64,000 bases of DNA from an uncultured Gammaproteobacteria bacterium (lineage in GTDB: Bacteria; Pseudomonadota; Gammaproteobacteria; UBA9214), in the NCBI GenBank assembly GCA_963773065.1, contig CAVYZN010000023.1:115493-179492 (forward strand), written 5' to 3'. The notes beneath the pieces are model-generated. The model did no database searches, had not been told where the DNA came from, and worked only from the letters and a program-made list of their open reading frames with translations. The number at the start of each line of letters is the position of its first letter. Within the stretch, counting starts at the first letter, position 1. A program made the position numbers and the translations under genes. This document shows positions 62,019 to 64,000 of the stretch, in pieces.

Positions 62019-62347
62019 ATGCTGACCGTGGCCGAAACGGAATTATTCAGCCGCTATGCCGCCGACTATTGGACTGAGGCGGAACACGAGAGTTCGTCGC
62101 CTGGAATGCGATGAATACCGAAGCGGGCGACGTCATCCCTGGCACCGGTGGTCGCCGCAAGCTCCGCTGGACACGCAGCGGCATGGGCAAGCGCGGAGGT
62201 GTCAGGGTGATCTATTTCAATCGGCTGAACGAAGGCATGCTCTGGTTGTTGCTGATCTCCGGCAAGAGCGCCCGGGACAACGTTCCCGCGAATGTCCTTC
62301 GAGCCATACGCGATAAACTCATTATGACTAAATTCACCAGCAAGTAA
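62019..62347 (+). pseudogene. HigB-2/RelE-like toxin (frameshifted)
   Basis: MLTVAETELF; AGDVIPGTGGRRKLRW..GKRGGVRVIY. Confidence 0.8.
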
Positions 62348-62634
62348 CTCCAGAAGCGTGACGCCGCGCGCGACATCGGCGAGGAACTGTTGCAAGCGGT
62401 GCGCGACATGAAGCGCGCCGCGCGGCGCGTACGCATAAAGTGGGAATGCCCGTCGCCGCCGCCGCACGCGCCAGGACCGGCCTGACCGAGGCGCAGTTCG
62501 CGACCCTGCTCGGCGTGTCGGTGCGCACCCTTCAGGAATGGGAACAAGGGCGCCGCGAACCCAGCGGCTCCGCCAAATCGCTTCTGCTCATCGCATTGCG
62601 GCATCCGGAGGTGCTGCGGGAGTTGGCGGCGTAG
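62323..62634 (+). pseudogene. HigA-like HTH antitoxin (internal stop and frameshift)
   Basis: RDIGEELLQAVRDMK; ARTGLTEAQFATLLGVSVRTLQEWEQGRREPSG. Confidence 0.8.
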
Positions 62635-62673
62635 ACATTTCAAAAAATGCGCGGGTGTTGCTGCGCAACGCCT

Positions 62674-62705
62674 GGTGGGTTACGCAAGATACGCTAACCC
62701 ACCCT
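62674..62705 (-). repeat. GTAG-type REP, interrupted by IS110
   Basis: GGTGGGTTACGC..GCTAACCCACCCT, continued by ACAT after the IS. Confidence 0.8.
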
Positions 62706-62719
62706 TGTATCTTAATCCC

Positions 62720-62900
62720 GTAATGGTTAGCTACCATTACCCGAGACGGAAAGAGCCTGAGCCCACCCTGAGACGGTTGAGTCTGGGATGTAGATGAGGC
62801 CTTCCGTCTCCCTTTAATGCCTTCTGAACACTGAACGGTATCCAAGGTCCCGTCGAGGCGCGGTGAACCTGCATGGACAAGGAAAGTGGGGATTGAAGGC
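62720..62900 (+). ncRNA. Predicted IS110 bridge RNA
   Basis: 5' hairpin, target loop in GAGACGGAA/TTCCGTCTC stem, donor loop in GCCTTC/GAAGGC stem; guides match target and donor. Confidence 0.85.
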
Positions 62901-62925
62901 GGGTGGTTTCTGCTAAGGAGTGATC

Positions 62926-63918
62926 ATGATTTACCTCGGAATTGATGTTTCCAAAAAGAAACTGGACGCGAAGCTGTTGCTTGACCCGGCGCAGGTGAAA
63001 TTCAAATCCAAGTCGGTCACCAACACGGCGCAAGGTGTCGCGGAGCTCTTGGCGTGGACGCTGCGACACGGCGGTTGTGGGGTTGATGGGGTGCACGCGC
63101 TGATGGAGGCGACCGGTGTCTACCATGAGCTTGCCGCCACGGCCCTGTTTGATGCCGGGGTGCGGGTGTCGGTGGTCAATCCGGCGCAGCTCAAGGAGTT
63201 TGCGCGTGGCCTGGCGGTCAAATCGAAAAACGACGGCATCGACACGGCGGTGCTGGCGCGTTACGGGGCGCTGCTCAACCCCGCTCCCTGGCAGCCCGAG
63301 CCCCGGGAGTTGCGGGAGTTGAAGGCGCTGCTGGCGCGCCTCGATGCGATCGAGGCGGATCCGCGCCGGGAGTCGAACCGTCAGGAGAAAACCGAGCACG
63401 CCACCGTGCCCGCCGAGGTGTTGGAATCGCTGGCAAAGAGCGTGGCGTTTCTGCGTGAAGAACAGGCACGCCTGCAACAGCGCATCAAGGATCACATCGA
63501 TGGGCATCCCACGCTGCGCCAGGACCGGGCGCTGCTGCAGACGATCCCCGCCATCGGGGATAAAACCGCGTTTCGCATGCTGGCATTGCTGCGCAGCCGC
63601 GCCTTCGCTTCGGCGACCCAGGCCGCCGCCTACGTCGGCTTGGTGCCGGTGGAGCATCAGTCGGGTAGCAGCGTCTGTAAACGCCCGCGCCTGTCCAAGG
63701 CCGGCAACGCCCGCTTCCGGGCTGCCTTGTATATGGCCGCCGTCGTTGCCACACGCTATAACCCGGACGTCCGCGCCCAATATCAACGCTTGCTGGCAGC
63801 GGGGAAGTCCAAAATGAGCGTGCTCGGTGCCGCCATGCGCAAACTGGTACATATCTGTTTTGGCGTGCTCAAGCATCAAACACCTTATGTCGCTCACTGC
63901 GGACAAAAATACCCTTGA
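62926..63918 (+). CDS. IS110 DEDD recombinase
   Basis: GIDVSK, MEATG, KNDGID, QSGSS, SKAGN, AAMRKL; AAGGAG RBS. Confidence 0.96.
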   Translation: MIYLGIDVSKKKLDAKLLLDPAQVKFKSKSVTNTAQGVAELLAWTLRHGGCGVDGVHALMEATGVYHELAATALFDAGVRVSVVNPAQLKEFARGLAVKSKNDGIDTAVLARYGALLNPAPWQPEPRELRELKALLARLDAIEADPRRESNRQEKTEHATVPAEVLESLAKSVAFLREEQARLQQRIKDHIDGHPTLRQDRALLQTIPAIGDKTAFRMLALLRSRAFASATQAAAYVGLVPVEHQSGSSVCKRPRLSKAGNARFRAALYMAAVVATRYNPDVRAQYQRLLAAGKSKMSVLGAAMRKLVHICFGVLKHQTPYVAHCGQKYP

Positions 63919-64000
63919 CGGAAAAGACGGTATCTACATTTCTGACAGACGCCGACCCGCCACCGGATATGCTCACGGCGGAGCGCAGCGACCGGAAAGC

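Follow-up and report, generated by a model that had tools for sequence, protein, structure and literature searches.

The founding bridge-RNA recombinase system is that of the insertion sequence (IS) IS621 of Escherichia coli (PMC11208160; structures 8WT6-8WT9, PMC11208158). As described for this system, a left target guide (LTG) of 9 nt lies in the sense of the top-strand left target (LT) plus core, the right target guide (RTG), which has 4 nt and can be lengthened to 7, is reverse complementary to the core plus right target (RT), and the left and right donor guides (LDG and RDG), which face the left donor (LD) and the right donor (RD), are analogous, with nine RDG bases pairing discontiguously with seven donor bases (PMC11208160). 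Handshake dinucleotides are defined as complementary to the non-cognate DNA at positions 6-7, and the catalytic residues of the IS621 recombinase are given as D11, E60, D102, D105 and S241, with G242 conserved (PMC11208158). The architecture was published in 2024 for thousands of IS110 orthologues (PMC11208160). Here, an element of this family was analyzed at the far end of a 64,000-nt stretch of DNA (the window; positions 115493-179492 of contig CAVYZN010000023.1 of an uncultured gammaproteobacterium), whose base 64000 coincides with the end of the contig. The element is very probably an apparently intact IS110-family insertion (IS110 subgroup, IS621-like) at the dinucleotide CT on the 3' foot of a hairpin resembling a repetitive extragenic palindrome (REP), and carries a bridge RNA with the guides mapped below.

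The insertion, its target site and its recombinase

A preliminary description made from the sequence alone had placed CT cores at 62704-62705 and 63934-63935 and derived from them the flanks and a circle junction, and each of these coordinates and strings was found in the sequence. The boundaries used here rest on paralogous empty sites and on contigs that depart at 62705. The features of the insertion and its gene are as follows:

62706-63935, + strand: IS element of 1,230 bp, counting one CT core
62697-62705, + strand: left target ACCCACC (62697-62703) and left copy of the CT core (62704-62705)
63927-63935, + strand: left donor ACGGTAT (63927-63933) and right copy of the CT core (63934-63935)
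63936-63939, + strand: right target ACAT
62706-62712, + strand: right donor TGTATCT, of which bases 1-5 pair with ACAAG and bases 6-7 with AU of the RDG
62674-62703, + strand: REP-like palindrome with arms GGTGGGTTA (62674-62682) and TAACCCACC (62695-62703) and a loop of 12 nt; the left target is its 3' arm
62926-63918, + strand: recombinase gene (330 aa; DEDD RuvC-like domain and Tnp domain), stop codon at 63916-63918
62915-62920, + strand: Shine-Dalgarno-like AAGGAG, 5 nt upstream of the ATG at 62926, read from the sequence

Read over 62400-64000, the order on the left side is GGTGGGTTA-CGCAAGATACGC-TAACCCACC-CT-TGTATCTTAATCC and on the right side CTTGACGGAAAAGACGGTAT-CT-ACATTTC; the left end of the element begins TGTATCTT and the right end finishes GACGGTAT, with TAACCCACC flanking on the left and ACATTTC on the right. 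The empty site rebuilt from these flanks, ACCCACCCTACATT, occurs 8 times exactly in the same genome and 17 times when up to one mismatch is allowed, and each of these 17 matches lies at the 3' foot of a REP-like palindrome (e.g., AACGCCTGGTGGGTTACGCAAAAAACGCTAACCCACC-CT-ACATTTC). Because uninterrupted copies of ACCCACCCTACATT are present in the genome, the element is an insertion between the LT ACCCACC and the RT ACAT, with CT repeated. Repetition of the CT core at both ends and presence of the uninterrupted target elsewhere group the element with the IS621-like ones. Comparison with sequencing runs, which yielded 23 rows, all of them DNA metagenome contigs and with a best share of 0.41, revealed empty sites in 4 metagenome runs as well, several contigs matching the REP up to 62705 and then reading ACAT or ACAA.

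The recombinase is encoded by the single long + strand frame between both CT cores, which leaves non-coding ends of 220 nt on the left (62706-62925) and, past the stop codon, of 17 nt on the right (63919-63935), in keeping with the long left and very short right ends of IS621-like elements. Pfam recognized DEDD_Tnp_IS110 (PF01548) in the N-terminal part (residues 4-153, E 1.2e-22, 80.8 bits, cut-off 29) and Transposase_20 (PF02371) as the C-terminal Tnp domain (residues 202-287, E 3.1e-24, 85.6 bits, cut-off 21.3). Two matches only were obtained among PDB sequences using phmmer, namely the IS621 transposase 8wt6_A (E 1.7e-58, 201.7 bits) and ISCro4 9t56_A (E 6.7e-55), both spanning recombinase residues 3-323. 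In the alignment with 8wt6_A (chain numbering +2), D7, E61, D103, D106 and S246 together with G247 align with D11, E60, D102, D105, S241 and G242 of IS621. Since the frame is open and all catalytic residues are aligned, the recombinase gene appears intact, and the assignment to the IS110 family made in the preliminary description is upheld by both IS110 Pfam domains, the IS621 and ISCro4 matches and the five catalytic residues kept.

Bridge RNA structure and guide-flank covariation

The left end was compared among 80 loci encoding relatives at 36-63% identity from species-representative genomes (set 1). A conserved left end, C|TTGTATCT, was present in 72 of these 80 loci at 183-260 nt upstream of the gene; the 8 loci without a TTGTATCT-like left end were excluded and 5 more with 2 mismatches were kept out of the alignment, which comprised 58 distinct orthologous left ends plus the window, with the left-end motif 183-246 nt upstream of the gene in the rows kept. 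The structural modules and guides of the window RNA are:

62720-62740, + strand: 5' stem-loop of the bridge RNA (62720-62726/62734-62740, 7 pairs)
62743-62810, + strand: target-binding loop module with outer stems 62743-62751/62802-62810 and 62755-62758/62797-62800 and inner hairpin 62771-62774/62781-62784
62819-62901, + strand: donor-binding loop module with outer stem 62829-62832/62885-62888 plus GCCUUC 62819-62824/GAAGGC 62896-62901, and inner stem 62845-62848/62867-62870
62761-62769, + strand: LTG GCCCACCCU, in the same sense as ACCCACC-CT, 8/9 identical; position 1 forms an rG·dT wobble with the bottom strand
62788-62793, + strand: RTG AUGUAG, reverse complement of CT-ACAT (6/6); module extent 62785-62793
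62835-62843, + strand: LDG ACGGUAUCC, in the same sense as ACGGTAT-C(T), 8/9
62873-62881, + strand: RDG AU-GG-ACAAG, pairing with CTTGTAT (7/7 with GG bulged); ACAAG is 62877-62881
62794-62795, + strand: handshake guide AU of the target loop, complementary to donor positions 6-7 (AT)
62882-62883, + strand: handshake guide of the donor loop, in which G62882 is complementary to target position 7 (C)

RNAalifold recovered from the alignment the 5' hairpin, the target-loop stems, the inner hairpin and the inner donor-loop stem; it missed the outer donor-loop stem, which was entered by hand and then tested by pair counts. Over the resulting 37 base pairs, 90.0% of the cells of the alignment are paired as compared to 67.7% with shuffled columns (0 of 500 shuffles as high) and to 36-46% when the partners are slid by 1-3 columns. 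Compensatory changes were found in 35 of the 37 pairs, including all seven pairs of helix 1, i.e., the 5' stem-loop. In the window RNA, helices 1-5, 7 and 8 are fully paired, with Watson-Crick pairs throughout. The 5' hairpin and the stem 62743-62751/62802-62810 recognized previously are therefore not only present and paired but covary across orthologues, and the two stem-enclosed loops with their compensatory pairs agree with the IS621-type two-loop architecture that had been proposed for the left end.

The guide columns were set by the family alignment, so that no guide position was picked by eye. At these columns the window scores 6/7 plus the wobble for LT, 4 for RT, 7/7 plus C for LD and 5 + 2 for RD. 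All four guides proposed earlier were recovered: GCCCACCCT at 62761-62769 matches left target plus core in 8 of 9 positions, the sole mismatch (LT position 1) being a G·T wobble; ATGTAG at 62788-62793 is the reverse complement of CTACAT in all six; ACGGTATC at 62835-62842 stands at the LDG columns; and ACAAG at 62877-62881 is the reverse complement of CTTGT, a complementarity kept in 59/59 aligned left ends. The discontiguous RDG, the handshake dinucleotides, the wobble nature of LT position 1 and the junction promoter considered below are additions to that description. The handshake guide AU of the target loop occurs together with donor AT in 39 of 44 rows, and 52 of 57 rows have a donor-loop handshake base that complements target position 7, including the rare G7/C and A7/U cases; A62883 shows no pairing with target C6. 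The bases GGG at 62785-62787 could lengthen the RTG pairing by two G·T wobbles and one G-C pair. A 9-nt RTG was nevertheless rejected, as no family covariation was found at RT positions 6-7 (0.28 vs. 0.26 and 0.34 vs. 0.35).

Guides and flanks covary across the family. For the flank test in set 1, the 66 loci (window included) whose left flank was complete over 7 nt were reduced to 42 distinct LTGs, and 47 right ends remained after those with more than one mismatch had been discarded. Over the seven non-core bases the mean LT/LTG identity was 5.69/7, with 19 perfect LTGs, as compared to 2.85 ± 0.18 for shuffled pairings (maximum 3.52 in 2,000 shuffles). A second set of 80 loci from metagenome contigs, of which 67 had the left-end motif and 5 with left ends identical to set-1 rows were dropped, gave 5.92/7 over 40 distinct LTGs (23 perfect) vs. 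3.19 ± 0.18 shuffled, and the 29 LTGs new relative to set 1 gave 5.86 vs. 3.18. Contiguous RT matches past the core averaged 3.45 vs. 1.81 ± 0.17 in set 1 and 3.39 vs. 1.77 in set 2, the signal being present at RT positions 1-5 and absent at 6-7 in set 1. The covariation of loops with flanks across homologues that the preliminary description had suggested checking is thus borne out in both sets. In the genome, 18 of 386,160 CT sites (4.7e-5) have at least 6/7 left-target matches plus ACAT. A chance origin of the guide matches is excluded by this figure together with the covariation of guide columns with flanks. Of the 49 LT mismatches in cognate pairs of the family, 18 are compatible with a wobble, as compared to 8 for the reverse transitions, a modest hint at wobble tolerance at LT across the family.

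A group of enterobacterial and gut-metagenome loci was observed in which the 7 nt left of the core mismatch the LTG (CCCTTCCCT or CCCAGCCCT) and resemble the left half of the donor: the left flank is ACGGTGG in L059, L062, L128, L129, L131, L134-L136 and L155, ACAGTAT in L150 and CGGTATC in L064. Such flanks point to IS ends in tandem or nested within each other, or to arrangements resembling a junction.

Target-site reuse, mobility and alternative readings

Copies of the element were also found outside this genome. A contig of 1,407 nt in run X2 spans 62677-63940, shows 50 differences and continues into sequence resembling the flank of a REP of the 36-nt class elsewhere in the genome, and run X3 has a contig that passes from a 36-nt-class REP into the element at 62694. 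These copies, about 96% identical, are thus found in another REP class, again at TAACCCACC-CT-ACAT. Insertion of other copies at unrelated sites had been named in the preliminary description as evidence to the contrary; the copies found sit at this motif in other REP copies. None of the differences listed for them within 62720-62905 falls in a guide; 34 differences are unlisted, and at roughly 4% divergence only about 1 would be expected there. Three apparent skips in the run comparison (sides of 21-28 letters, single contigs, 90% likeness) were rejected as deletions or circles and taken as cross-matches from related IS copies. A junction of right end with left end was not seen in the metagenome contigs, which cannot show its absence. 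In run X4, a contig links window-like sequence after 62868 to donor-loop sequence typical of another orthologue (ACGGTAGCCAAGGGCC); this joint reflects either a related IS of the community or the chimeric assembly of IS relatives.

Of 8,000 candidates scored, 5,196 proteins matched the recombinase with E values of 1e-40 or lower. Identities of the nearest ones are 99, 92, 90, 89 and 88%; they are unnamed or called transposase and mostly lie on contigs of 1.2-1.8 kb; the best match in species-representative genomes is 63% identical, and the nearest IS relatives in that set belong to Thiobacillaceae, Gallionella and other proteobacterial metagenome-assembled genomes. No named IS record was among the protein matches, ISfinder lying outside this search. 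The whole element had no match in 20,395 E. coli records (blastn, distant setting), so that no DNA alignment with IS621 could be made; IS621 was also absent from the 160 loci fetched, none of which bore its LTG. The 79%-identical relative L090 has the LTG ACCCACCCU and the RTG GUAG, followed by CT-ACATTATT. In the same locus (1-205, 1180-1215) ACGAG stands in place of the window RDG ACAAG, and the left terminus is cut off by the contig end.

On the host side, 46 REP-like palindromes were found by regular expression in 30-nt and 36/37-nt classes; they were counted on both strands, so that the elements number roughly half as many. They form doublets of about 120 bp (targets about 117 bp apart) that combine one 36/37-nt and one 30-nt palindrome, e.g., C5:152157-152278 and C26:3236-3356, and both outer ends of a doublet read TAACCC(A/G)CC-CT-ACAT (TAACCCACC-CT-ACAT) as convergent targets. 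The window has only the 30-nt half of such a doublet at 62655-62703. The motif TAACCCACCCTACAT occurs, at no more than one mismatch, 22, 20, 5, 2 and 14 times in five same-genus genomes, with 0 hits for the reversed-pattern control. The recombinase was not found with the window query in the other four of these genomes (completeness 88-100%). With the motif in all five, the repeat family is the resident and the IS a sporadic occupant. One REP copy (C16:131398-131450) ends TAACCCACC-CT-TGTAT-TGTGAAATTGTAGG, i.e., with left target, core and five bases identical to the IS left end and no IS after them. Chance could account for this, at about 1 in 1,000 per site, as could a scar or a variant end of the repeat. 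Directly upstream of the window REP, at 62111-62347 (+) and 62440-62634 (+), lies a small gene pair resembling a toxin-antitoxin module, with one weak RelE-like match (E 0.0012, below the Pfam cut-off) and one HTH_3/Xre-like/MqsA-like antitoxin match (E 1.4e-8).

With regard to expression, two hexamers face each other across the circle junction ACGGTAT-CT-TGTAT:

63915-63920, + strand: -35 hexamer TTGACG, overlapping the stop codon 63916-63918
62708-62713, + strand: -10 hexamer TATCTT, in a promoter formed only across the circle junction (9/12 consensus, 17-nt spacer)

The promoter scan of the linear sequence 62400-64000 detected no promoter-like site, and the junction passes the same criteria. 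Circularization would thereby assemble a sigma-70 promoter, as judged from the consensus match, and transcription may start at G62720, the first base of the 5' hairpin, about 7 nt past the -10 hexamer. A -35 box is described in the natural right end of IS621 (PMC11208160) and weak expression is reported from integrated IS621 loci (PMC13626964), which fit, respectively, the junction promoter of the window element and its presence only at the junction. By analogy with IS621, we propose that the recombinase excises the element as a circle, whereby the joining of right end to left end would set TTGACG 17 nt upstream of TATCTT and yield a promoter firing at about 62720. From this promoter a bridge RNA of about 180 nt would be made, probably followed by the recombinase mRNA; the first internal loop of the RNA would pair with the target and the second with the circle junction, and, in the last step, a recombinase tetramer would swap strands at both CT cores by way of phosphoserine intermediates at Ser246. 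RNA-guided insertion, like transcription, excision and the potential reprogrammability suggested in the preliminary description, is inferred from the precedent of IS621-type systems. A role of the REP hairpin plus T-rich left end as terminator, by analogy with ISPpu10, is speculative: the scan does not list it, the loop being 12 nt.

Several observations weigh against an active, fully typical bridge-RNA element. Folded as a single sequence, the RNA surpasses shuffled versions only modestly, 7 of 200 of these being equally stable (z = -2.1), and family helix 6, the outer donor-loop stem, is unformed in the family register; the window has in its place the 6-bp stem GCCUUC 62819-62824/GAAGGC 62896-62901, also present in the single-sequence fold. 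Thus, when the element was called intact, this was right for the open frame, the catalytic residues and seven of the eight family helices, whereas helix 6 is replaced by a stem in another register. LDG position 9 is unpaired with the core T, and LD position 7 is often unmatched in the family. As 38 of 44 family members likewise have C facing the core T, and 12 of 44 have T facing G or A at position 7, these mismatches are habits of the family and not defects of the window copy. The LD match is partly circular, as the right ends for the LD and RT tests had been located with the LDG; LD position 2 nonetheless reads C/C in 26 rows and T/T in 18. The junction promoter arrangement is present in 22 of 44 distinct elements, and the other 22 lack a TTGACA-like hexamer at 16-18 nt; 18 of these have ATGGTAT-type right ends. 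In the ATGGTAT-type rows (L021-L026, L030, L033, L040-L044, L056, L058, L075, L081, L082), TTGA/TTGT-like strings were seen by eye farther upstream, and the junction promoter may be built differently in this subgroup. Furthermore, the element is single in the assembly, so that recent activity in this genome is unsupported: searches of the genome itself yielded no further copy, and only an IS110-like stretch of 28% identity on C32. The latter is a distant frame (C32:198803-199204, -; residues 187-319, E 1.4e-4, open frame of 379 aa). Finally, the perfect guide-specified site GCCCACCCTAC occurs 0 times in the genome and every available site needs the position-1 wobble. Rfam, scanned over 62500-64000 at E up to 1, gave 0 matches, which is uninformative since a match requires a curated family.

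Among the alternatives, it is possible, if doubtful, that recognition of the REP DNA hairpin by the recombinase mainly sets the target and that guide complementarity is secondary or permissive, i.e., a structure-gated 'dual-match' targeting. In its favor, the left target coincides exactly with the 3' arm of a hairpin of 9 bp, all three sites seen (window, X2 and X3) lie in REP-type repeats, and the convergent target pairs about 117 bp apart resemble those of ISPpu10, for which a hairpin 5' of the core is described as raising the efficiency of targets (10.64898/2026.03.19.712850). However, the guide follows the flank base by base, with a perfect 7/7 in 19 of 42 and 23 of 40 LTGs, which recognition of a hairpin alone would not produce, and in ISPpu10, too, sequence complementarity is stated to still 'dictate the genomic address' (10.64898/2026.03.19.712850). 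Hairpin recognition would hence supplement the RNA-guided mechanism and not replace it.

We consider it unlikely that the element, while a genuine IS110 bridge-RNA element, is dormant here, having come from a host with GCCCACC-CT repeats and being poorly matched locally and effectively immobile. The single copy would agree with this, as would the missing perfect sites against 15 sites of the type ACCCACCCTAC in the genome and the recombinase being found in none of the four other same-genus genomes despite the REP motif in all. Moreover, orthologues with the same LTG (L012, L041, L046, L047 and L080) sit at GCCCACC-CT, the relative L090 bears ACCCACCCU instead, and excision of IS621 is reported to be inefficient (PMC13626964). 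On the other hand, the copies in two runs lie in the other REP class at ACCCACC-CT-ACAT, so the lineage has moved among such sites. The rG·dT wobble counts as pairing, a G-U wobble at LT being described in the active ISPpu10 (10.64898/2026.03.19.712850) and wobble-compatible mismatches occurring in cognate pairs of the family (18/49, as given above), and both the open reading frame and the RNA helices are intact.

A rather improbable extension of the RNA-guided reading is that pairing is relaxed: target position 1 would pair by an rG·dT wobble, the right guide would span 9 nt, two of its pairs being G·T wobbles, and the REP hairpin would gate the site. If true, relaxed pairing would let one guide serve a diverged repeat family, that is, both REP classes and several species of the genus, and, together with the 5' stem-loop, it would combine features that stand in an evolutionary trade-off according to the ISPpu10 preprint (10.64898/2026.03.19.712850).

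That the left end merely provides the transposase gene with a 5' untranslated leader and a promoter region, flank complementarities arising by chance, is extremely improbable: the empty Rfam scan and the modest fold z-score would suit it, but the guides fit only 4.7e-5 of CT sites, guide-flank covariation in two independent locus sets reached a value met in 0 of 2,000 shuffles, 35 of 37 stem pairs covary, and homologous RNAs guide IS621 experimentally (PMC11208160).

Comparison with known systems

The bridge RNA of the element could be read base by base from raw sequence, with target, donor and handshake guides and junction promoter recovered. The element also extends the set of natural orthologues by one member of environmental proteobacterial origin whose 13-nt target is defined. 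IS110 orthologues are raw material for genome-editing screens. Since thousands of them are already catalogued, the gain is incremental. The host side, with genus-wide REP doublets and sporadic IS occupancy, provides a natural example of safe-site targeting.

Elements of the IS1111 subgroup carry the guide RNA downstream of the gene and have subterminal inverted repeats. In contrast, the RNA lies upstream of the gene in the window element and the right non-coding end is only 17 nt long. The recombinase family and the RNA-guided logic are the same in both (e.g., IS4321/IS5075, cited in PMC11208160).

Likenesses also exist to ISPpu10 and ISPpu9 of Pseudomonas putida, IS110-family elements that also insert into REP sequences (10.64898/2026.03.19.712850; PMC12288879). 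Going by the description of ISPpu10, a left target in a hairpin arm, a tolerated LT wobble and convergent target pairs are shared, whereas the 5' stem-loop of the bridge RNA, reported as lacking in ISPpu10, is present here at 62720-62740 (10.64898/2026.03.19.712850). ISCro4 (PDB 9T56) is the second solved homologue, matched over residues 3-323 and compared by protein sequence alone.

The window element resembles IS621. Both share the domain order, the size (330 aa here, the Tnp domain of IS621 ending at residue 326), the five catalytic residues and the CT core (PMC11208160; PMC11208158), as well as a left-end bridge RNA with 5' stem-loop, target-binding loop and donor-binding loop, the 9-nt LTG in top-strand sense, the reverse-complement RTG, the discontiguous 9-on-7 RDG and the handshake dinucleotides, and also a -35 box in the right end and targets of REP type. 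In contrast, protein similarity is moderate (201.7 bits, E 1.7e-58), the target is ACCCACC-CT-ACAT as compared to ATCAGGC-CT-AC given for wild-type IS621 (PMC11208160), RTG pairing extends over 6 bases instead of 4, and with wobbles possibly over 9, the outer donor-loop stem is in a different register and the host is an environmental bacterium. The clade of the window element may already be covered by the list of IS110 orthologues and predicted bridge RNAs in the supplementary data of PMC11208160. Taken all together, the kind of system is fully known, and the window element is a new orthologue with its own target.

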